From assembly GCF_058153355.1 (NCBI RefSeq), contig NZ_CM177019.1: DNA of 64,000 nt; one strand, 5' to 3'. The position numbers and the translations under genes were made by a program. Shown one piece after another: positions 11,355 through 55,948 of the stretch; the stretch's first letter is position 1; each line of letters opens with the position of its first letter. Below the pieces are notes generated by a model. It did no database searches, was not told the origin of the DNA, and saw only the letters and a program-made list of their open reading frames with translations.

Positions 11355-12107
11355 ATGACCATTAAAAATGTAATTTGCGATATCGACGGCGTGCTGATGC
11401 ACGATAACGTCGCCGTACCGGGTGCAGCGGAATTTTTGCACGGGATTATGGATAAAGGCCTGCCGCTGGTGTTGCTGACCAACTATCCTTCGCAGACCGG
11501 GCAAGATCTGGCGAACCGCTTTGCCACTGCGGGTGTCGATGTGCCGGACAGCGTGTTTTATACCTCCGCGATGGCGACCGCCGATTTCCTGCGTCGCCAG
11601 GAAGGTAAGAAAGCGTATGTGGTGGGCGAAGGCGCACTGATTCATGAACTGTACAAAGCCGGTTTCACTATTACCGATGTGAACCCTGATTTTGTGATTG
11701 TTGGCGAAACGCGTTCCTACAACTGGGACATGATGCATAAAGCAGCCTATTTCGTCGCTAACGGTGCACGCTTTATCGCCACCAACCCGGACACCCACGG
11801 GCGCGGTTTTTATCCGGCCTGTGGCGCGCTATGCGCGGGGATCGAAAAAATCTCCGGACGTAAACCGTTCTATGTTGGTAAGCCGAGTCCGTGGATCATC
11901 CGCGCAGCATTAAACAAAATGCAGGCGCATTCGGAAGAAACGGTGATTGTCGGCGATAACTTGCGCACCGACATTCTGGCGGGCTTCCAGGCCGGTCTGG
12001 AGACGATTCTGGTGCTTTCTGGTGTTTCATCGCTCGACGATATCGACAGTATGCCGTTCCGCCCAAGCTGGATTTACCCGTCAGTCGCTGAAATCGACGT
12101 TATCTGA
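11355..12107 (+). CDS. nagD: UMP phosphatase NagD/UmpH (250 aa), HAD superfamily
   Basis: MTIKNVICDIDGVLMHDN... HAD motif I (DIDGV); correct length. Confidence 0.93.
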   Translation: MTIKNVICDIDGVLMHDNVAVPGAAEFLHGIMDKGLPLVLLTNYPSQTGQDLANRFATAGVDVPDSVFYTSAMATADFLRRQEGKKAYVVGEGALIHELYKAGFTITDVNPDFVIVGETRSYNWDMMHKAAYFVANGARFIATNPDTHGRGFYPACGALCAGIEKISGRKPFYVGKPSPWIIRAALNKMQAHSEETVIVGDNLRTDILAGFQAGLETILVLSGVSSLDDIDSMPFRPSWIYPSVAEIDVI

Positions 12108-12159
12108 ATACCACCCACGTCTGCGGACGTGGTTGGCTCTGATGACAAACGCCAAACTG

Positions 12160-13407
<1,248 letters not shown>

Positions 13408-13502
13408 CATGCCTGCAATCTGGGAAACCGGGGTAGAAAAAAACTTGCAGGCCATAACAGTATCTACGCAGCTCCTGCAATATATTGAATTTTCATGCTT
13501 TT

Positions 13503-13539
13503 GTAGGCAGGATAAGGCGTTCACGCCGCATCCGGCATG
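13503..13539. repeat. REP element downstream of the IS
   Basis: GTAGGCAGGATAAGGCGTTCACGCCGCATCCGGCATG. Confidence 0.5.
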
Positions 13540-13783
13540 AACAAATCGCACTTTGTCAGCAATTTGGCCCCCGTAAAATATAACCATTTAATAAAACCCG
13601 CTAAAAATTATCGATTCATCAATAAATACATCCTCACACCAGACCTTTTTTCACCAATCGACAATCACCATTACGTTTTTTATTCCCCCCCTGCCAAATC
13701 GCTTGCGCACAGTGCTGCTTTGCGGCATTTTTTTAAACAAGCAAACACAACAAGCAACAAATACCAGGTTAACGGAGAAGGTT

Positions 13784-15448
13784 ATGTGTTCAATTTTTGG
13801 CGTATTCGATATCAAAACAGACGCAGTTGAGCTGCGTAAGAAAGCACTCGAGCTGTCACGCCTGATGCGTCATCGTGGCCCGGACTGGTCCGGTATTTAT
13901 GCCAGCGATAACGCCATTCTCGCCCACGAACGTCTGTCCATTGTTGACGTTAACGCGGGGGCGCAACCTCTCTACAACCAACAAAAAACGCATGTGCTGG
14001 CGGTAAACGGTGAAATCTACAACCACCAGGCATTGCGCGCTGAATATGGCGATCGTTACCAGTTCCAGACCGGGTCTGACTGTGAAGTGATCCTCGCGCT
14101 GTATCAGGAAAAAGGGCCGGAATTTCTCGACGATTTGCAGGGCATGTTCGCTTTTGCCCTGTACGACAGCGAAAAAGATGCGTATCTGATTGGTCGCGAC
14201 CATCTGGGGATCATCCCACTGTATATGGGCTATGACGAACATGGTCAGCTGTATGTGGCCTCAGAAATGAAAGCCCTGGTGCCGGTATGCCGCACGATTA
14301 AAGAGTTCCCGGCGGGGAGCTATTTGTGGAGTCAGGACGGCGAAATCCGTTCTTATTATCACCGCGACTGGTTCGACTACGATGCGGTGAAAGATAACGT
14401 GACCGACAAAAACGAGCTGCGTCAGGCGCTGGAAGATTCCGTTAAAAGCCATCTGATGTCTGACGTGCCTTACGGTGTGCTGCTTTCTGGTGGTCTGGAT
14501 TCCTCAATTATTTCCGCGATCACCAAGAAATACGCCGCCCGTCGCGTGGAAGATCAGGAACGCTCTGAAGCCTGGTGGCCGCAGCTGCACTCCTTTGCTG
14601 TAGGTCTGCCGGGTTCACCGGATCTGAAGGCAGCCCAGGAAGTGGCAAACCATCTGGGCACTGTGCATCATGAAATTCACTTCACTGTACAGGAAGGTCT
14701 GGATGCCATCCGCGATGTTATTTACCACATCGAAACCTATGACGTGACGACTATCCGCGCTTCAACGCCGATGTATTTAATGTCGCGTAAGATCAAGGCG
14801 ATGGGCATTAAAATGGTGCTGTCCGGTGAAGGTTCTGATGAAGTGTTTGGCGGTTATCTCTACTTCCACAAAGCACCAAACGCCAAAGAGCTACATGAAG
14901 AGACGGTGCGTAAACTGCTGGCCCTGCATATGTATGATTGCGCGCGTGCCAACAAAGCGATGTCAGCCTGGGGCGTGGAAGCGCGCGTTCCGTTCCTCGA
15001 CAAGAAATTCCTCGACGTGGCAATGCGTATTAACCCACAGGATAAAATGTGCGGTAACGGCAAAATGGAAAAACACATCCTGCGTGAATGTTTTGAAGCG
15101 TATCTGCCTGCAAGCGTGGCCTGGCGGCAGAAAGAGCAGTTTTCCGATGGCGTCGGTTACAGTTGGATAGACACTCTGAAAGAAGTGGCGGCGCAGCAGG
15201 TTTCTGATCAACAACTGGAAACTGCCCGTTTCCGCTTCCCGTACAACACGCCGACCTCAAAAGAAGCGTATCTGTACCGGGAGATCTTTGAAGAACTGTT
15301 CCCGCTACCGAGCGCCGCTGAGTGTGTACCGGGCGGCCCGTCCGTCGCGTGTTCTTCCGCTAAAGCGATTGAATGGGATGAGGCGTTCAAGAAAATGGAC
15401 GATCCGTCTGGTCGTGCGGTTGGCGTTCACCAGTCGGCCTATAAGTAA
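13784..15448 (+). CDS. asnB: Asparagine synthetase B, glutamine-hydrolysing (554 aa)
   Basis: ATG at 13784 after AACGGAGAAGG gives MCSIFGVFDIKTDAVELRKK... (N-terminal Cys nucleophile); correct length. Confidence 0.96.
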   Translation: MCSIFGVFDIKTDAVELRKKALELSRLMRHRGPDWSGIYASDNAILAHERLSIVDVNAGAQPLYNQQKTHVLAVNGEIYNHQALRAEYGDRYQFQTGSDCEVILALYQEKGPEFLDDLQGMFAFALYDSEKDAYLIGRDHLGIIPLYMGYDEHGQLYVASEMKALVPVCRTIKEFPAGSYLWSQDGEIRSYYHRDWFDYDAVKDNVTDKNELRQALEDSVKSHLMSDVPYGVLLSGGLDSSIISAITKKYAARRVEDQERSEAWWPQLHSFAVGLPGSPDLKAAQEVANHLGTVHHEIHFTVQEGLDAIRDVIYHIETYDVTTIRASTPMYLMSRKIKAMGIKMVLSGEGSDEVFGGYLYFHKAPNAKELHEETVRKLLALHMYDCARANKAMSAWGVEARVPFLDKKFLDVAMRINPQDKMCGNGKMEKHILRECFEAYLPASVAWRQKEQFSDGVGYSWIDTLKEVAAQQVSDQQLETARFRFPYNTPTSKEAYLYREIFEELFPLPSAAECVPGGPSVACSSAKAIEWDEAFKKMDDPSGRAVGVHQSAYK

Positions 15449-15462
15449 GAAAGGCGGTACTG

Positions 15463-15490
15463 CCCCGGAGAAATCCGGGGCTGTTTCAGT
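15463..15490 (+). terminator. Candidate terminator downstream of asnB
   Basis: CCCCGGAGAAATCCGGGG hairpin followed by CTGTTTCAGTT (weak T-tract). Confidence 0.45.
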
Positions 15491-15759
15491 TATTGAGCTG
15501 CTTGTTGATTCTCATATGCAGTAAGGAAATGTTCCGGGTTTGCCACATCACTGTTTGACAACTCATCACTGTAGGCCAGTACTTCATAGATTAATTTCCT
15601 ACCACTATTGTTGAATTCCGAATTTCATCCTGTATGACAAAAGAATGGCTGTAGGGTGGGGAAAAAACACAAAGTAAACAATAATTGACGAATATAGCGC
15701 CACGCTGTTCGCAACCTAACCAAACAGTCACTTTCGAGCAATTTTCCTTGAAAAAGAGG

Positions 15760-15788
15760 TTGACGCTGCAAGGCTCTATACGCATAAT
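15760..15788 (+). promoter_or_regulatory. Sigma-70 promoter of the seven-tRNA operon
   Basis: TTGACG (15760-15765), 17-bp spacer, CATAAT (15783-15788), then GC-rich discriminator GCGCCCCGC; AT-rich UP-like stretch upstream. Confidence 0.5.
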
Positions 15789-15827
15789 GCGCCCCGCAAC
15801 GCCGATAAGGTATCGCGAAAAAAAGAT

Positions 15828-15904
15828 GGCTACGTAGCTCAGTTGGTTAGAGCACATCACTCATAATGATGGGGTCACAGGTTCGAATCCCGTCGTAGCC
15901 ACCA
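15828..15904 (+). tRNA. metT: tRNA-Met (elongator, anticodon CAU)
   Basis: GGCTACGTAGCTCAGTTGGTTAGAGCACATCACTCATAATGATGGGG...GTAGCCACCA; CAT in anticodon loop, CCA end. Confidence 0.95.
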
Positions 15905-15912
15905 TCTTTTTT

Positions 15913-15997
15913 GCGGGAGTGGCGAAATTGGTAGACGCACCAGATTTAGGTTCTGGCGCCGCAAGGTGTGCGAGTTCAAGTCTCGCCTCCCGCACCA
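15913..15997 (+). tRNA. leuW: tRNA-Leu (anticodon UAG)
   Basis: GCGGGAGTGGCGAAATTGGTAGACGCACCAGATTTAGGTTCTGG...CCCGCACCA; long variable arm. Confidence 0.95.
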
Positions 15998-16020
15998 TTC
16001 ACCAGAAAGCGTTGTACGGA

Positions 16021-16095
16021 TGGGGTATCGCCAAGCGGTAAGGCACCGGTTTTTGATACCGGCATTCCCTGGTTCGAATCCAGGTACCCCAGCCA
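16021..16095 (+). tRNA. glnU: tRNA-Gln (anticodon UUG)
   Basis: TGGGGTATCGCCAAGCGGTAAGGCACCGGTTTTTGATACCGG...CCCCAGCCA. Confidence 0.95.
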
Positions 16096-16129
16096 TCTTC
16101 TTCGAATAAGCGGTTCACCGCCCGGTTAT

Positions 16130-16204
16130 TGGGGTATCGCCAAGCGGTAAGGCACCGGTTTTTGATACCGGCATTCCCTGGTTCGAATCCAGGTACCCCA
16201 GCCA
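16130..16204 (+). tRNA. glnW: tRNA-Gln (anticodon UUG), second copy
   Basis: Identical to the preceding tRNA-Gln(UUG). Confidence 0.95.
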
Positions 16205-16219
16205 TCGAAGAAACAATCT

Positions 16220-16296
16220 GGCTACGTAGCTCAGTTGGTTAGAGCACATCACTCATAATGATGGGGTCACAGGTTCGAATCCCGTCGTAGCCACCA
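16220..16296 (+). tRNA. metU: tRNA-Met (elongator, anticodon CAU), second copy
   Basis: Identical to the copy at 15828-15904. Confidence 0.95.
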
Positions 16297-16344
16297 AATT
16301 CTGAATGTGTCGAATGCGTTCGGCAAATTCACAAACCAATTTGT

Positions 16345-16419
16345 TGGGGTATCGCCAAGCGGTAAGGCACCGGATTCTGATTCCGGCATTCCGAGGTTCG
16401 AATCCTCGTACCCCAGCCA
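16345..16419 (+). tRNA. glnV: tRNA-Gln (anticodon CUG)
   Basis: TGGGGTATCGCCAAGCGGTAAGGCACCGGATTCTGATTCCGG...; anticodon is wild-type CUG, not the CUA of supE. Confidence 0.95.
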
Positions 16420-16456
16420 ATTTATTCAAGACGCTTATATTGTAAGTGCACCCAGT

Positions 16457-16531
16457 TGGGGTATCGCCAAGCGGTAAGGCACCGGATTCTGATTCCGGCA
16501 TTCCGAGGTTCGAATCCTCGTACCCCAGCCA
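16457..16531 (+). tRNA. glnX: tRNA-Gln (anticodon CUG), second copy
   Basis: Identical to the copy at 16345-16419. Confidence 0.95.
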
Positions 16532-16535
16532 CATT

Positions 16536-16566
16536 AAAAAAACTCGCTTCGGCGAGCTTTTTGCTT
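16536..16566 (+). terminator. Rho-independent terminator of the tRNA operon
   Basis: AAAAAAACTCGCTTCGGCGAGCTTTTTGC: hairpin plus T-run. Confidence 0.7.
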
Positions 16567-16619
16567 TTCTGCGTATATTCAATGTCGAATGCGATGTTGA
16601 CACGTCTTATTCTTCAAAG

Positions 16620-16655
16620 TCGGATGCGACGCTGATGCGTCTTATCCGACCTACA
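16620..16655. repeat. REP element
   Basis: GTCGGATGCGACGCTGATGCGTCTTATCCGACCTAC. Confidence 0.5.
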
Positions 16656-16684
16656 GTTGGCATGCATCCGTCAATGTTGTAAGG

Positions 16685-17860
16685 CTACAACCCTAACGCA
16701 TATTTCAGCGCCTGCCGTTTCAATACGCCAGCACGCTCCGCCGCCATTAACCCGAGATTACGCATAAAACGCAGTGGCGGCAGATTATTGCTGAATCCGG
16801 CATAAAACAGATCCATACCGCTTTGCATAATGAAGTTATCCGCCATACGCCGCATCTGGTAACGCTTGAGGACAGGATAACTGGCCCACGCTTCACCGTA
16901 GCTGCGGGCATTCACCAGAACGTCAATCAGCGCATCAACATCGCGATAACCGAGGTTAACCCCCTGCCCCGCCAACGGATGAATGGTGTGCGCGGCATCG
17001 CCCACCAGCGCAAGCCCTGGTTGCACATACTGCAACGCATGGCGGCGCGTCAGCGGAAACGCACCAGCGGCGAGTGGCATCACGTACCCAAGACGCGACG
17101 GGAAATGCTTCGCGATTTCCGCCTGTAACTGCGCCATATTCATATTCTGCAACTGGCGAATGCGTGCCGGAGAGTCATACCACACCAGCGATGCCCAGTT
17201 ATCAAACAGCGGCAGAAACGCACGAGGTCCATCCGGGGTAAATTGCTGCCAGGTGCTGTCGCCGGGATCGTTCTCACACTGTACGCTAATCAACATACAC
17301 GACTGTGCATACTGCCAGGCATGAACGCCAATTCCCGCCATCTGCCGCACCTGCGAATTTGCGCCGTCGGCACCAATCACCAGCTTCGCGCGGATCGTTT
17401 CACCGCCCTTCAGTTCCAGCTCCTGAAGATCATTATGGCGATGCAGCGCAATCAGCGAGCCTGGCACACGTAACGTTACTTTCGGATGCGCTTCCAGCGC
17501 CTGCCACAGCGCCTGTTGCAGGACAGTGTTTTCCACCATATAGCCAAGCAACGGCAGCTTCAATTCGGCTGCATCAAACACCACATGCGCCGTTTCCCAC
17601 TCCCACGTTTCCAGTCTGCGATAAGGATGGCAACGCATGGCCTGTACCGCGTCCCAGACGCCTAAACCTTTAAGCAATGATACCGAAGCCGCACTAATCG
17701 CCGAGATCCGCACGTCAGGCTGGCTGTCAGCGACAAACGGTGCAGGTTGGGCATGTTCGATAACCGTTACCGAAAATCCGTGCTGAGCCAGTCCCAGCGC
17801 CAGTGCGCCGCCGACCATTCCTCCGCCGACAATGGCAATTTCCGTTGGTTGATTTGTCAT
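16685..17860 (-). CDS. ubiF: UbiF, ubiquinone-biosynthesis FAD-dependent hydroxylase (391 aa)
   Basis: MTNQPTEIAIVGGGMVGGALALGL... (FAD-binding GxGxxG); ATG at 17860 with AGGA RBS (ORF track uses upstream TTG). Confidence 0.93.
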   Translation of the reverse strand: MTNQPTEIAIVGGGMVGGALALGLAQHGFSVTVIEHAQPAPFVADSQPDVRISAISAASVSLLKGLGVWDAVQAMRCHPYRRLETWEWETAHVVFDAAELKLPLLGYMVENTVLQQALWQALEAHPKVTLRVPGSLIALHRHNDLQELELKGGETIRAKLVIGADGANSQVRQMAGIGVHAWQYAQSCMLISVQCENDPGDSTWQQFTPDGPRAFLPLFDNWASLVWYDSPARIRQLQNMNMAQLQAEIAKHFPSRLGYVMPLAAGAFPLTRRHALQYVQPGLALVGDAAHTIHPLAGQGVNLGYRDVDALIDVLVNARSYGEAWASYPVLKRYQMRRMADNFIMQSGMDLFYAGFSNNLPPLRFMRNLGLMAAERAGVLKRQALKYALGL

Positions 17861-23722: not shown

Positions 23723-23750
23723 GGGGCGTGATTATCATGCCCCTTTTTTT
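23723..23750. terminator. Bidirectional terminator at the convergent 3' ends of lnt and the rhomboid gene
   Basis: GGGGCGTGATTATCATGCCCC hairpin followed by TTTTTTT; overlaps the rhomboid gene stop codon. Confidence 0.6.
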
Positions 23751-25626
23751 ACGGTTCAGGGATACAAGCCACATCGCCATATTGGGGATGCCGAATAATT
23801 GCCTGCGGATCAAGCGAGCGCGTCCTGTCCATTTGGATTAACCCGTTCTTCGCCATAACAAATATCTTTCTACCATCCGCTGAAAAACGAAGATGATTAA
23901 CGTAGCTGGCAGGATAAACGCCAATAATCTGCCCGGCATTAATATTGAGCAGGATGACATAACCTTGCAGGCCATATGACACCAACGCTAAATACTGACC
24001 GTCCGGGCTAATACCCTCAACAGAATAAACGCTCCTGCTACACCATTGCGTCATAATGCTGGCTTGTTGATCCCCTGTGCTTATACGTGAAATCCCCTGA
24101 CTATCGGCAAAAATAACCTCACCATTTTTTGGTCGGAATCCCATCGCAGAAACGACACCACGCGCATCACCTGCGGGAAAGTCTTCTTTCTGATGCGTGA
24201 TGGTATTGATCCGCACGATGTTACCTCTGCCTGCTCCTGGAACCAGTAATGTTTTTTCATCCGGGGAAAGTGCCATAACCCAGGCGCCTGGTTTACCGCT
24301 CGTCCCCGTCCCGTCGTATTTCTCCAGTGCGATATCCGCCACATGCTGATAAGTCACCAGATCAATCGCTGACACACTATTACTGGTGCGATTCATCACC
24401 CAGGCTTTTGTGCCATCACGCGAGAGGATAAGGCTGTCAGGATGGGCGCCGGTGGTAATCGACTGAATAATCTCCCCCGTCGCCACGTTAACGACCGATA
24501 ATGCATTCGCTTCAAATGAAGTCGCATACAGCAACTTTTCATCGGGGCTTAACACCAGCGATCTGACGCCCTGATCTTTACAGCCACCACAATGTTTGAC
24601 TGACTTTTCTTTCGCTATGGGCGCTGTAAAGGTATGCAGGATTTTCTTTTGTCCGAGGTCGAAAACAACAATACTGTTCGTGTTTTCAATTGCGGCATAT
24701 AACGTATTACCATCCCGATTGATCGCCATATCATGGATATCGGCAATCTCAGCGAGCAAATCACCACTGGCCTGTTCACGACTTACCGGAGCGGATAATG
24801 TTTCCCTGAGGGCATTGCGTTCCTCCGCTAACTGCTGCTTTTTATGCCGTCGCTCTTGTTCAATCTCCTGCGGATAAAACTCTTCACGCAGGCTTTGCCT
24901 GACCTGCAAAACTGATTCATCAATCTGCTGCTGCACAAGCCAGATAGCCCCGGTCAGTAGAAGACTACCCGCAACAATAATCCCACCTTCCGTAACGAGC
25001 CGGTTTTGCCCAGATAAACGCGCACTCAGCCAACCCAACGCTCCACCTGCCATCAGGCCGCCAATGTGGCAAGCGTTATCTATTCCTGCTTGCCGGGCAC
25101 CATACAACAGTGTCAGCGCCACCATACCCAACAGAGAAAATACTCGCCGCTGGTTTTTATGGTGTGTACCCGCACCTGAAGAAAGCTGTGTTGCTATCGC
25201 AGCGCCAGCTATTCCCATAATTGCCCCGGATGCCCCAACGCTGATGACTATCTGCTCACTTTCGCGTAACGCATAACAGGCGCTGATGAGCCCACCAAAG
25301 ATGCCGGAGAATAACCAGATAATCAGGAGTCGCCATTTCCCCAGTATCCGTTCCGCCACTGTCCCCACCACCAGGAGTGCAAACATATTCATCAGCAAAT
25401 GGGAAAAACTACTGTGCAGAAAAACACTGCTCAATAAGCGCCAGGGTTCACCCGACAACGTGAGAGAGGCAACGTTAGCGCCGAGATGGATGAGTGCGGA
25501 TTGATCGACTTCTTCATAACTCATCCATTGTGCGAGGTAACAAAATATCCCAACACATAGCGCAAAAAGGATCAGGGTTATTGCGGGTAATTGAACATTT
25601 AACGGCTTAACCGAAGATGCAGACAT
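23749..25626 (-). CDS. Rhomboid-family intramembrane serine protease fused to a C-terminal YVTN-type beta-propeller domain (about 625 aa)
   Basis: ATG at 25626 after AAGGAAG gives MSASSVKPLNV...; rhomboid motifs WRLLSSVFLHSSFSHLLMNM, GASGAIMG (Ser) and ACHIGGLMAG (His); 7th TM helix, coiled-coil linker, then repeated ...LYAAIENTNSIVVFDL / LYATSFEANALSVVNVATG / AWVMNRTSNSVSAIDL blades. Confidence 0.8.
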   Translation of the reverse strand: MSASSVKPLNVQLPAITLILFALCVGIFCYLAQWMSYEEVDQSALIHLGANVASLTLSGEPWRLLSSVFLHSSFSHLLMNMFALLVVGTVAERILGKWRLLIIWLFSGIFGGLISACYALRESEQIVISVGASGAIMGIAGAAIATQLSSGAGTHHKNQRRVFSLLGMVALTLLYGARQAGIDNACHIGGLMAGGALGWLSARLSGQNRLVTEGGIIVAGSLLLTGAIWLVQQQIDESVLQVRQSLREEFYPQEIEQERRHKKQQLAEERNALRETLSAPVSREQASGDLLAEIADIHDMAINRDGNTLYAAIENTNSIVVFDLGQKKILHTFTAPIAKEKSVKHCGGCKDQGVRSLVLSPDEKLLYATSFEANALSVVNVATGEIIQSITTGAHPDSLILSRDGTKAWVMNRTSNSVSAIDLVTYQHVADIALEKYDGTGTSGKPGAWVMALSPDEKTLLVPGAGRGNIVRINTITHQKEDFPAGDARGVVSAMGFRPKNGEVIFADSQGISRISTGDQQASIMTQWCSRSVYSVEGISPDGQYLALVSYGLQGYVILLNINAGQIIGVYPASYVNHLRFSADGRKIFVMAKNGLIQMDRTRSLDPQAIIRHPQYGDVACIPEP

Positions 25627-26081
25627 AAGGTGATTCTTCCTTGAAAAGACAGGTAAAAAAGCATTTTTCCCGTGTGCAGTTATCATCCCGGCAAACGTCC
25701 CATACCGAAAAGTTAACTCTGTCCGAAATATGACTTTTTCAGCCTGAAATTACAATCGTAATTAATTCACCCCTAAGTATTTTTTGGCATGTAAGTTGCT
25801 TTATTTACTGTGTAAGCAATGAAATCAGCCGCAACGCAACCGGGTTGCACCAACACAAATCAGCGGTAGCACCAAAAAGGTGCGGTTTAAGAGTTTTGCT
25901 TCGGAATGGTGCGGCGCATCTCGCAAAAACAAACAATAAAACATCAATATCTTTACATTTAACCAAACTAAATGTTACCTAACAAACACAACACTGCACA
26001 ATAAAGTTGCAGATGATAACAACACAAACACTCACAACGGGTATCCATGCGTTCTTAACGCAGAAGATAAAGGAGTTGGAT

Positions 26082-32216: not shown

Positions 32217-33669
32217 CTAACTGAACAACATCGCGATTTTACCGAGCGCGTAACCTATCACCAGAACCGTTAAGCTGATTTTGATAATACTGGCAATGCT
32301 CTGTGGTTTTTCACTCTCATTATTCTTCTCTTCGTGTTCTTCAGGTGCTGGCTCGTCGATATCTTCTTCCACCGGCTCGAGCTTCACTTTCGTCAACAGC
32401 ATGTGAGTAATAATGGCTTCTAACGGATGTGCTTCTCCTCGTTCCAGTCGCGCATTCAGGCGGGCCAGCATCTCTTGTTTCGGGAACGCTTCCAGCACAA
32501 CCTGTTCCGCTACCCGATACAAATCCAGTAACGGTGAATCTTGTTCTGTCTCGCTACCGACTCTCGATTTCCACCATGCCCATGCTTTGCGCTTGAAGAA
32601 TAACGACTCAATAAACGATTGACCTAACGGCGATAATTTTCCGCTATGTAAAATTTCCGCCCATAACAGCCGCGTCCGGGCGCTCTCACCAGGAACATAT
32701 TTCAACGGTTGACCTTGAGCATCTATCATGCTTCGCGCTTCGATAACCATCACTAATAACGCGAAATAATCCGGGCAATGACGCTTGCTCCACTGCAACA
32801 ACAAATTATCAGCTTGTGTAGATGGGTAACTCTCCCGGTATGCGCAGAGATCGGCAAGCAGGCTTTCCCCCTCGCCACAGTACAACCGTTGCGCACACTG
32901 GTAATAACGGGCATCTTCGCTTTCTGGTTCTTCCGTTTGCCACTGTTGCGCTACAGAAATGAGTTCCGCCATACCTGTTTGCACCGAGCTATACCAGCGC
33001 AACAATTTGCGATGCAACTTCGCATCATCGGGAATGAACCACGGACCTTCCATCGCCAAAAACGCAGTGACATAGTCAGGGTGATAACGGCAGCAGCGTT
33101 CCAATGCGAAGTAATACTCAACAGTCTGGTTCTGCAACGCGACGGGATATTCCAGAAGGCTTAGAAAATCGAAACAATCCCCGGCCTGAATGGCCTCAAG
33201 AAAAGCCTCCCGTTCTTCCTCGTCCATGCCTTCACTTTCATTAAACGAATGCCAGTTCAAACGCTCTGCCAGCAAAGAAGCACAATTTAATGAAAGATAT
33301 CGCGCTTCTGTAGCGATTGCACACAGCGGCCAGCGTAATTGATCGACATCCTCCATGTTCCATGGTATTTAATTGCTGAATAAATTTCTGCCAGGCGGAG
33401 GGCTGAAAACGATCGCTTTCCGAAGCCAGTAAGGTTCTGAACGCTTTCAGTGCTTCGTGCTCTTCTGCAAGATTTTTCTCGTCATCAGCATTTTTTTCGT
33501 CCGGATTGACAGCCAGTCGCAGCGCCTCTTCATAGGCCTGGCGTAATGCTTTAAACCCCTGCGGATCGGTTTCGGGATGACACAACGGTAAGCGAGCAAG
33601 ATAAGCCTGGCGGATAATGTCTATTTGCGTCGTGCTTTCAATTTCGAGGATTTGCCAACATGTTTTCAT
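32217..33669 (-). pseudogene. djlC: djlC (J-domain co-chaperone of HscC), split by a frameshift into 142-aa and 379-aa overlapping ORFs
   Basis: ORF 33241..33669 ([15 protein letters not shown]...[10 protein letters not shown] then out of frame) and ORF 32217..33356 ([15 protein letters not shown]...) are collinear with intact paralog DjlB (...[24 protein letters not shown]...). Confidence 0.65.
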
Positions 33670-37332: not shown

Positions 37333-38310
37333 ATGATTTTTACATCAAGTTGCTGCGATAATTTATCAATAGATGAGATTATCGAACGTGCTGAAAAAGG
37401 AGATAGTGAAGCACAATATATTGTTGGGTTTTATTATAATCGCGATAGCGCAATTGACTCTCCGGACGACGAAAAAGCCTTCTACTGGCTGAAGCTTGCC
37501 GCTGAACAAGGCCATTGTGAAGCACAATATTCCTTAGGGCGGAAATACTCCGAGGATAAAAGCCGTCATAAAGATAATGAGCAAGCCATCTTTTGGCTGA
37601 AAAAAGCTGCCCTACAAGGCCATACTTTCGCTTCCAACGCCCTTGGCTGGATACTGGATCGTGGAGAAGACCCCAACTATAAAGAAGCGGTTGCCTGGTA
37701 TCAGATAGCCGCGGAGAGCGGAATGCCTTATGCGCAAAATAATCTTGGGTGGATGTACAGAAATGGCAACGGAGTCACACAAGATTATGCGCTGGCATTT
37801 TTCTGGTACAAACAAGCTGCATTGCAAGGCCATAGTTACGCACAAGACAATCTGGCCGATCTTTATGAAGACGGTAAAGGTGTTGCCCAAAACAAAGCTC
37901 TTGCCGCATTCTGGTATTTGAAAAGCGCACAGCAAGGTAATCGGCACGCTCAATTTCAAATTGCGTGGGATTATAACGCTGGCGAAGGGGTTGACCAGGA
38001 CTATAAGCAAGCAATGTACTGGTATCTGAAGGCTGCCGCTCAGGAAAGCGTCGGCGCTTACGTTAACATCGGCTATATGTATAAACACGGTCAAGGCGTT
38101 GAGAAGGATTATCAGGCAGCCTTTGAATGGTTTACGAAAGCCGCTGAATGCGATAATGCCACTGCCTAGTATAACCTTGCCATTATGTATCATTACGGAG
38201 AAGGAAGACCTGTCGATCTCCGACAGGCTCTCGATCTGTATCGTAAAGCTCAGTCATCCGGTACCAAGGATGTCAGTCAAAAAATCCGTGAGATTGAAGA
38301 TTTACTGTAG
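37333..38310 (+). pseudogene. ybeQ: ybeQ (Sel1-repeat protein) with in-frame amber stop at 38167-38169; would be 325 aa if read through
   Basis: Sel1 repeats continue uninterrupted across the TAG (...KAAECDNATA*YNLAIMYHYGEGRPVDLRQALDLYRKAQ...); the stop sits where other repeats have Gln (AQxxLG). Confidence 0.6.
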
Positions 38311-39097: not shown

Positions 39098-41680
39098 ATG
39101 CAAGAGCAATACCGCCCGGAAGAGATAGAATCCAAAGTACAGCTTCATTGGGATGAGAAGCGCACATTTGAAGTAACAGAAGACGAGAGCAAAGAGAAGT
39201 ATTACTGCCTGTCTATGCTTCCCTATCCTTCTGGTCGACTACACATGGGCCACGTACGTAACTACACCATCGGTGACGTGATCGCCCGTTACCAGCGCAT
39301 GCTGGGCAAAAACGTTCTGCAGCCGATCGGCTGGGACGCGTTTGGTCTGCCTGCGGAAGGCGCAGCGGTGAAAAATAACACCGCGCCAGCACCGTGGACG
39401 TACGACAACATCGCGTACATGAAAAACCAGCTCAAAATGCTGGGCTTTGGTTATGACTGGAGCCGCGAGCTGGCAACCTGTACACCGGAATACTACCGTT
39501 GGGAACAGAAATTCTTCACCGAGCTGTATAAAAAAGGCCTGGTATATAAGAAGACTTCTGCGGTCAACTGGTGCCCGAACGACCAGACCGTACTGGCGAA
39601 CGAACAGGTTATCGACGGCTGCTGCTGGCGCTGCGATACCAAAGTTGAGCGTAAAGAGATCCCGCAGTGGTTTATCAAAATCACCGCTTACGCTGACGAG
39701 CTGCTCAACGATCTGGATAAACTGGATCACTGGCCAGACACCGTTAAAACCATGCAGCGTAACTGGATCGGTCGTTCCGAAGGCGTGGAAATCACCTTCA
39801 ACGTTAACGACTATGACAACACGCTGACCGTTTACACTACCCGCCCGGACACCCTTATGGGTTGTACCTACCTGGCGGTAGCGGCAGGTCATCCGCTGGC
39901 ACAAAAAGCGGCGGAAAATAATCCTGAACTGGCGGCCTTTATTGACGAATGCCGTAACACCAAAGTTGCCGAAGCTGAAATGGCAACGATGGAGAAAAAA
40001 GGCGTCGATACTGGCTTTAAAGCGGTTCACCCATTAACGGGCGAAGAAATTCCCGTTTGGGCAGCAAACTTCGTATTGATGGAATACGGCACGGGCGCAG
40101 TTATGGCGGTTCCGGGTCACGACCAGCGCGACTACGAGTTTGCCTCTAAATACGGCCTGAATATCAAACCGGTTATCCTGGCAGCTGACGGTTCTGAGCC
40201 AGATCTTTCTCAGCAAGCCCTGACCGAAAAAGGCGTGCTGTTCAACTCTGGCGAGTTCAACGGCCTTGATCATGAAGCAGCCTTCAACGCCATTGCCGAT
40301 AAACTGACTGCGATGGGTGTTGGCGAGCGTAAAGTGAACTATCGCCTGCGCGACTGGGGTGTTTCCCGTCAACGTTACTGGGGCGCGCCGATTCCGATGG
40401 TGACGCTGGAAGACGGTACTGTAATGCCGACCCCGGACGACCAACTGCCGGTGATCCTGCCGGAAGATGTGGTGATGGACGGCATTACCAGCCCAATCAA
40501 AGCTGATCCTGAGTGGGCGAAAACCACCGTTAACGGTATGCCAGCGCTGCGTGAAACCGACACTTTCGACACCTTTATGGAGTCCTCCTGGTACTATGCG
40601 CGCTACACTTGCCCTGAGTACAAAGAAGGTATGCTGGATTCCGAAGCGGCCAACTACTGGCTGCCGGTGGATATCTACATTGGTGGTATCGAACACGCCA
40701 TTATGCACCTGCTCTACTTCCGCTTCTTCCATAAACTGATGCGTGATGCAGGCATGGTGAACTCTGACGAACCAGCAAAACAGTTGCTGTGTCAGGGTAT
40801 GGTGCTGGCGGATGCCTTCTACTATGTTGGCGAAAACGGCGAGCGTAACTGGGTTTCCCCAGTTGATGCTATCGTTGAACGTGACGAGAAAGGCCGTATC
40901 GTGAAAGCGAAAGATGCGGCAGGCCATGAACTGGTTTATACCGGCATGAGCAAAATGTCCAAGTCGAAGAACAACGGTATCGACCCACAGGTGATGGTTG
41001 AACGTTACGGCGCGGACACCGTTCGTCTGTTTATGATGTTTGCTTCTCCGGCGGATATGACTCTCGAATGGCAGGAGTCTGGCGTGGAAGGGGCTAACCG
41101 CTTCCTGAAACGTGTCTGGAAACTGGTTTACGAGCACACTGCAAAAGGTGATGTTGCAGCACTGAATGTCGACGCGTTGACTGAAGATCAGAAAGCACTG
41201 CGTCGCGATGTTCATAAAACTATCGCTAAAGTGACCGATGATATCGGCCGTCGTCAGACCTTCAACACCGCGATTGCGGCAATTATGGAGCTGATGAACA
41301 AACTGGCGAAAGCACCGACCGATGGCGAGCAGGATCGCGCCCTGATGCAGGAAGCGCTGCTGGCGGTAGTCCGTATGCTTAACCCGTTCACCCCGCACAT
41401 CTGCTTCACGCTGTGGCAGGAACTGAAAGGCGAAGGCGATATCGACAACGCGCCGTGGCCGGTTGCTGACGAAAAAGCGATGGTGGAAGACTCCACCCTG
41501 GTGGTGGTGCAGGTTAACGGTAAAGTCCGTGCCAAAATCACTGTTCCGGTGGACGCAACGGAAGAACAGGTTCGCGAACGTGCTGGCCAGGAACATCTGG
41601 TAGCAAAATATCTCGATGGCGTTACTGTGCGTAAAGTGATTTACGTACCAGGTAAACTCCTCAATCTGGTCGTTGGCTAA
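39098..41680 (+). CDS. leuS: Leucyl-tRNA synthetase (860 aa)
   Basis: [21 protein letters not shown]... from ATG at 39098; HMGH and KMSKS class I motifs. Confidence 0.97.
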
Positions 41681-55064: not shown

Positions 55065-55853
55065 TCATAATAATTGTGGCGGCGCAAAACGACGGTTGTT
55101 TAAGACGGGCAGTTGCGCGCGCACCTGACGCACACGTTCGGGCGTCACTTCCGCCATAATGAGTGCAGGCATTTCTGACGCTGCCGCAATGGTGACGCCA
55201 AAGGGATCTATAATCCGGCTTTGCCCGATATTTTTGTTCCCGCACTCCCCCGCCGCCACCATATAACAGGTGGTATCCAGCGCACGAGCGGCAAGCAACG
55301 TTGACCAGTGATGCTCTTTGAGCGGCCCGCGAACCCAGGCGGCAGGAAGTACCAGGATTTCAGCTCCCTGTAATGCCTGTGCCAGCGCCAGCTCTGGAAA
55401 GCGTAAGTCATAACAGGTCATCAGACCGACCTTCATCCCTTCCACCTCCAGTAACGGAGCTATTTCATTACCAGCATCAACATGGCGTGATTCCTGAATG
55501 GCAAATGCATCATAGAGATGCAGTTTGGCATAACGGGCGACGATGTTTCCTGCCTGTAGCGCCACCAGCATATTCCATGCGCGCCCCGGCGTTGAAGGAA
55601 CATGAATCGTCAGAATTGTCGTCATCATGTTACGTTTACTTTCTCGCCGTAAACGTCCGAGGAATTCGCCTTCCAGCAGCTGTGCTGATTTAACCGATAG
55701 ATCTGCATCATGATCATCACGCGCCAACAATGCTTCCGGCAGGACAAACAGCGAAACGTCGTTTTCCGCCGCCTGCGCCATCAACGAGGCACAAATCTCA
55801 GCGTTCTTTTCCCACACAGATGTAACAGCAAACTGTCCTGCGGCAACCAGCAT
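55065..55853 (-). CDS. ybeM: YbeM, nitrilase-superfamily (C-N hydrolase) protein, apparently intact (262 aa)
   Basis: ATG at 55853 after AGGAGGAGGTG gives [10 protein letters not shown]...; uninterrupted nitrilase-like ORF with catalytic-Cys region ([12 protein letters not shown]). Confidence 0.85.
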
Positions 55854-55948
55854 TGCCACCTCCTCCTGTCAGAGTCGTAAAATTCGCCAACGGCGATTAT
55901 TCGGCGTTACACTTATCACTCATACAAATCAAATAGCAGGATTTTGCA

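Follow-up and report, generated by a model that had tools for sequence, protein, structure and literature searches.

The window, a stretch of 64,000 nucleotides, contains on its plus strand (37333–38310) an orthologue of Escherichia coli ybeQ that has, with a probability of about 0.88, recently been turned into a pseudogene by a single G-to-A transition at a Dcm methylation site, a change that recurs in other E. coli genomes. The mutated base, at 38168, lies in codon 279 (38167–38169, plus strand). Codon-wise comparison with K-12, strain Z0117EC0005, and three other Escherichia species shows that this codon was TGG (Trp), and the lesion is thus W279*, TGG to TAG.

A megablast search of 5,426 complete E. 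coli genomes identified the locus as ybeQ, annotated as “Sel1 family TPR-like repeat protein YbeQ.” When K-12 genes are mapped onto the window, ybeR and ybeL lie on either side and leuS is nearby, with the strands arranged as in K-12. The frame that begins at the ATG at 37333 is collinear with K-12 ybeQ and spans 978 nt, or 325 codons plus a stop; its start and length agree with those of the coding sequence that PGAP calls in K-12. The two genes (978 versus 978 nt) differ at 66 nt (93.3% nucleotide identity) and align without indels. Synteny and this gap-free alignment uphold the gene name given in the initial annotation, which had also given the K-12 length correctly. A Pfam search of the repaired translation finds eight Sel1 repeats (PF08238), each with E < 0.001, and the nearest solved structures are Sel1-repeat proteins such as 4bwr (E = 4.5e-90). 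An NCBIfam search of YbeQ and YbeT gave nothing above threshold, with Sel1/TPR matches below the cutoff only. Judged from these comparisons, the locus is the orthologue of a cytoplasmic Sel1-repeat protein of uncharacterized function; we found no report of a characterized function for ybeQ in the literature.

In frame with the ATG at 37333, translation meets a TAG at 38167–38169, beyond which the frame is open for 46 codons until a second TAG at 38308–38310, as the initial annotation had described. The truncated open reading frame (37333–38169, plus strand) comprises 278 codons and the TAG, and keeps Sel1 repeats 1–7. The orphaned stretch (38170–38310, plus strand), made up of the 46 codons and the original stop, encodes the eighth Sel1 repeat and the C-terminal tail and is undecayed: it aligns without gaps to the YbeQ C terminus and matches strain Z0117EC0005, the source of the closest intact allele (14 nt differences across ybeQ), at 45 of 46 residues. 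Since an open run of 46 codons arises by chance with a probability of ∼0.1, openness alone is weak evidence, and it is the homology that identifies this stretch as a true gene remnant. The single residue separating these codons from the closest intact allele indicates that W279* is recent. The Pfam match to the eighth repeat covers residues 280–306 (model positions 5–31), which makes codon 279 its position 4 and places the stop, as first proposed, inside a conserved Sel1 repeat, the last of the protein. With one in-frame stop in an otherwise full-length family match, ybeQ in the window is an internal-stop pseudogene.

The identity of the ancestral codon is where our analysis departs from the initial annotation, which had read the stop as a CAG-to-TAG change because neighboring repeats have Gln at the corresponding place. 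Gln is indeed usual at that position, since position 4 across the eight repeats reads Q, Q, S, Q, Q, Q, Y, W, or Gln in five of eight. However, codon 279 is TGG in K-12, in Z0117EC0005, in 24A16CRGN010, and in Escherichia sp. E1V33, Escherichia sp. MOD1-EC7003, and E. whittamii. The last three are the only species-representative genomes in which our scan found true ybeQ orthologues, the remaining matches being Sel1 proteins with ∼40% identity. The comparison with K-12 codon 279 that had been proposed as a check thus returns a sense codon, TGG, and no CAG allele was seen in any intact orthologue compared. A single-base transition nonsense mutation is what we observe (G to A at 38168), but descent from a Gln codon is wrong on this evidence and retains virtually no probability.

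Two further readings would leave the genome with a full-length YbeQ. One is that 38168 is really G and ybeQ intact, the TAG having been introduced in sequencing or assembly; a single base is at issue, and the window is known from its assembled sequence alone. However, an independent read set, SRR8656992, has the identical TAG in its Logan assembly, where contig 40 matches the window at all but 1 of 6,837 positions, and among assemblies of public read sets three contigs yield precisely this 278-aa product. The lesion is a substitution rather than a homopolymer indel. Moreover, mapping ∼55 K-12 genes onto the window leaves ybeQ and djlC as the only disrupted ones, which argues that the assembly is not generally error-ridden. 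The djlC lesion (32217–33669, minus strand; hscC/djl/ybe cluster) is likewise reproduced: a +1 frameshift, caused by an extra A at ∼33363 outside any homopolymer, splits this gene for a co-chaperone of HscC into 142-aa and 379-aa open reading frames, and the SRR8656992 contig shares the split. Exact look-up in a clustered protein collection returned neither the 278-aa nor the repaired 325-aa YbeQ. The repaired product also has no contig record, so that no intact twin of the exact window allele was found, and an exact-pattern scan of metagenome contigs found no copy of the window TAG haplotype. A sequencing artefact is very unlikely as the source of the TAG.

The other reading is that full-length YbeQ is still made, either with the help of a suppressor tRNA encoded elsewhere or through programmed readthrough of the TAG. 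The intact 46 codons downstream could be taken in its favor, as could the fact that the tRNA inspection covers 64 kb of the genome, but those codons, with one amino acid difference from the closest allele, fit a recent mutation. None of the seven tRNAs that ARAGORN identifies in the window has a CUA anticodon; the four tRNA-Gln genes comprise two UUG and two CUG, all wild-type. The two tRNA-Gln(CUG) genes (16345–16419 and 16457–16531, plus strand; also matched by the Rfam tRNA model) are of the glnV/glnX type that gives rise to supE, and their wild-type anticodons bear out what had been said of them from the initial inspection. In supE44 laboratory strains a glnV amber suppressor provides a route to read UAG, whereas the glnV/glnX-type genes here keep CUG. 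With wild-type anticodons on all seven tRNAs, no supE-type suppression is expected from the window. Amber suppressors are in any case rare in natural isolates, and supE would insert Gln rather than the native Trp of YbeQ. Pyrrolysine and selenocysteine-type recoding at the TAG was dismissed because the stop is not conserved: five other Escherichia lineages or species have TGG, and a stop that orthologues do not conserve is not a recoding site. Taken together, these observations make readthrough highly improbable.

The sequence context of the transition suggests how it arose. In all intact alleles the codon is embedded in GCCTGGT, and the former Dcm site at 38165–38169 reads CCTGG, where the window has CCTAG. 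The change, G836 to A in gene coordinates (window 38168), falls opposite the internal C of the bottom-strand CCAGG, the base that Dcm methylates. K-12 ybeQ contains three CCWGG sites with six possible outcomes of 5-methylcytosine deamination, and only two of the six create stops, at Q222 (CAG to TAG) and at W279 (TGG to TAG). In the mechanism that we propose, 5-methylcytosine on the antisense strand would have deaminated at CCTGG and escaped very-short-patch repair, giving TGG to TAG. With TAG at codon 279, translation should end after residue 278, costing the protein its C-terminal tail and the last of its eight Sel1 repeats (46 residues in all), and the outcome would be a recent ybeQ pseudogene or, at best, a protein truncated at its C terminus. 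The dcm and vsr genes lie outside the 64-kb window. Deamination at the Dcm site is the most likely origin of W279*; that methylation rather than ordinary mutation was the cause is a step that we infer from the context and recurrence of the change.

There is a well-known precedent in lacI, where amber hotspots at CCAGG Dcm sites result from 5-methylcytosine deamination (Coulondre et al. 1978, reviewed in PMC12606429); such mutations are normally countered by Vsr very-short-patch repair (PMC2715241). In lacI as in ybeQ, a G:C-to-A:T transition at the internal methylated C of CCWGG yields UAG, and the lacI hotspots recur far more often than other nonsense sites, just as W279* is recurrent. The two differ in strand, the methylated C being antisense in ybeQ (CCTGG, TGG to TAG) and sense in lacI (CCAGG, CAG to TAG), and in the source of the evidence, which is natural populations for ybeQ and a mutant collection for lacI.

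Recurrence was assessed with 41-mer megablast queries centered on the variant, which seed only where the central base matches. The window haplotype with A had no match among the complete E. coli genomes, whereas the control with G restored matched 100 genomes, 99 of them exactly. The K-12 haplotype with A, on the other hand, is present in 14 complete E. coli genomes: AR436, AR_0374, ETEC1747, HNSQ2209, and ten OkiPb strains. In each of the four carriers that we inspected, PGAP labels ybeQ a pseudogene with an internal stop, and the neighboring DjlB and LeuS alleles vary among them. Codon, base change, and gene context are identical between these RefSeq pseudogenes and the window; what differs is the haplotype, which is K-12-like or of the ETEC1747 kind in the former, while the window haplotype with TAG occurs in no complete genome. 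The initial annotation had raised the case that K-12 and other strains carry the same TAG and are annotated with a shorter protein. K-12 lacks the TAG and the 14 genomes have it, but in the four inspected the locus is a pseudogene, not a shorter protein. Finding the stop in 14 other genomes marks the ybeQ event as real but not unusual.

The haplotypes themselves suggest that the change arose more than once. Over 2.5 kb, HNSQ2209 departs from K-12 at the W279* base only, and AR436 is a TUM1887-type haplotype plus that base. AR436, OkiPb, and ETEC1747 have a 3′ flank haplotype in common, and ETEC1747, with a distinct 5′ haplotype, represents a third haplotype bearing W279*. The window allele is 63–69 nt away from those of all other W279* TAG carriers. 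These comparisons point to at least three independent origins of W279* TAG (window, K-12 type, and AR436 type) and possibly four, and the Dcm 5-methylcytosine hotspot would account for an identical W279* on several unrelated ybeQ haplotypes.

K-12 ybeQ can acquire a stop codon by 47 different transitions; to survey nonsense changes across the gene, we joined 41-mers for all of these into one query and verified representatives of the matches. The survey covers K-12-like local haplotypes (28-mers) and, having been prompted by the W279 site itself, is subject to ascertainment bias. At the two methylated Dcm positions it recovered Q222* (TAG) in two genomes that have the K-12 allele with this base only changed, and W279* (TAG) in the 14 genomes. 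Away from methylated positions it recovered W52* (TAG) in ∼308 O157:H7-type genomes (verified in EDL933), W88* (TAG) in one genome, W140* (TGA) in two, and W279* (TGA) in one. At least seven events have thus occurred on K-12-like haplotypes, at least three of them at the 2 Dcm positions among 47 sites (binomial P ∼0.002, with the window event excluded), although the counts are small; we regard this apparent excess at Dcm positions as supportive, not conclusive. The other inactivations, most of them single transitions in Trp or Gln codons, resemble that in the window in that the same dispensable gene is lost, but their positions differ and only Q222* has the Dcm mechanism in common with it. Together with a further stop at W266 (see below), W52*, W88*, W140*, and the TGA form of W279* lie off methylated positions and indicate that ordinary mutation combined with relaxed selection also inactivates ybeQ.

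The gene is dispensable, and this is why W279* is tolerated. Of the 5,426 complete E. coli genomes, only 3,849 contain at least 80% of the locus, and no match was detected in 978. About 600 genomes have a 5′ deletion and keep only the 3′ third of ybeQ; in the one inspected, SCU-115, the annotation lists the remnant, which has an additional stop (W266*), as an incomplete pseudogene, and beside it djlB–ybeR is deleted and hscC pseudogenized. Once the W52* genomes of O157:H7 are counted, approximately one-third of complete E. coli genomes are without an intact ybeQ. Pseudogenization of ybeQ is also reported to define a lineage of Shigella sonnei (CenAsiaIII) (PMC6811581). The losses in SCU-115 suggest that the HscC/Djl/Sel1/DUF1266 module decays as a whole.

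Against this background, two other accounts of the repeated stop at codon 279 can be weighed. The first posits a single origin of W279* followed by transfer to other haplotypes through homologous recombination. Recombination is frequent in E. coli, and the 3′ flank common to AR436, OkiPb, and ETEC1747 means that some of these may represent one event. However, HNSQ2209 matches K-12 on both sides of the stop, with the nearest markers at −122 and +419 nt, and the 63–69 differences of the window allele include positions no more than 10 nt from the stop, so that a single origin would require several very short conversion tracts; we consider it quite improbable. The alternative account is that truncation was selected, either because the 278-aa YbeQ is functional or advantageous or because losing the hscC/djl/ybe module is of adaptive value; the repeated changes at codon 279 would follow from this. 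That codon has been struck by two different base changes, giving TAG at least three times and TGA once, djlC of the same cluster is broken in the window, and SCU-115-type strains have hscC, djlB, and ybeR either broken or deleted. On the other hand, stops at codons 52, 88, 140, 222, and 266, together with deletions and outright absence, indicate that any loss of function is tolerated rather than this truncation in particular, and the Dcm context accounts for the excess of TAG, which leaves selection an unlikely explanation. Its more specific form, in which codon 279 acts as a selected “off switch” for convergent adaptive loss of an HscC/DjlB/DjlC–Sel1–DUF1266 chaperone module in particular niches, we hold to be distinctly unlikely. 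Recurrent deamination in a dispensable gene is the reading that we favor.

For the cell carrying the window allele, the consequences of the stop are predicted to be confined to YbeQ. The gene appears to be monocistronic and convergent with ybeL, and hence no polarity would be expected. On inspection of the sequence, the ATG at 38185 has no obvious Shine-Dalgarno sequence, which makes re-initiation unlikely. The product is probably non-functional, although a 278-aa YbeQ with seven repeats might retain some function.

The rest of the window is collinear with K-12 from fldA to citE, with housekeeping genes ∼96%–97% identical. The leuS gene (39098–41680) is 97.0% identical to that of K-12 and 99.2% identical to that of 24A16CRGN010, where the ordinary E. 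coli pairs compared are 98.4%–100% identical, and the best 20-kb match to the window among complete E. coli genomes is 97.5%. By these measures the window would belong to a divergent lineage of the E. coli complex, or to a mosaic, and not to a relative of K-12. PADLOC assigned none of the cluster proteins to a defense system, one negligible match aside. Several features elsewhere in the window distinguish it from K-12. Between nagD and asnB, where K-12 has no counterpart, lies a 326-aa IS110-family RNA-guided transposase (12378–13358, plus strand), whose open reading frame matches NF033542 at 253 bits against a cutoff of 140; an Rfam search over 11500–17000 returned tRNAs only. The metT–leuW–gln cluster has four tRNA-Gln genes in the window (15828–16531) versus seven in K-12 GM4792, an apparent tandem amplification. 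Between lnt and gltI, at a site where K-12 has IS5, a 645-aa open reading frame (23749–25686, minus strand) combines a rhomboid-protease-like N terminus with beta-propeller repeats. The ybeM-type gene for a deaminated glutathione amidase (55065–55859, minus strand) is intact in the window (264 aa); in K-12 GM4792 it carries a frameshift according to the annotation. Outside Escherichia, a 254-nt contig of the Alkalicoccobacillus porphyridii assembly (NZ_VLXZ01000311.1) is 97.6% identical to the window ybeQ and almost certainly represents E. coli contamination of that assembly.

This is a routine and recurrent pseudogenization of a dispensable gene; the lesion is already public and annotated, and its novelty is low. 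Its biological weight is likewise small, ybeQ being an uncharacterized accessory gene that is often lost. For annotation, the locus is to be called a ybeQ pseudogene, rather than a 278-aa protein followed by an orphan open reading frame, and for typing, W279* is unsuitable as a lineage marker in SNP-based phylogenies. What the allele offers is a clean natural example in which a Dcm/5-methylcytosine amber hotspot would have yielded one nonsense allele repeatedly in wild E. coli.
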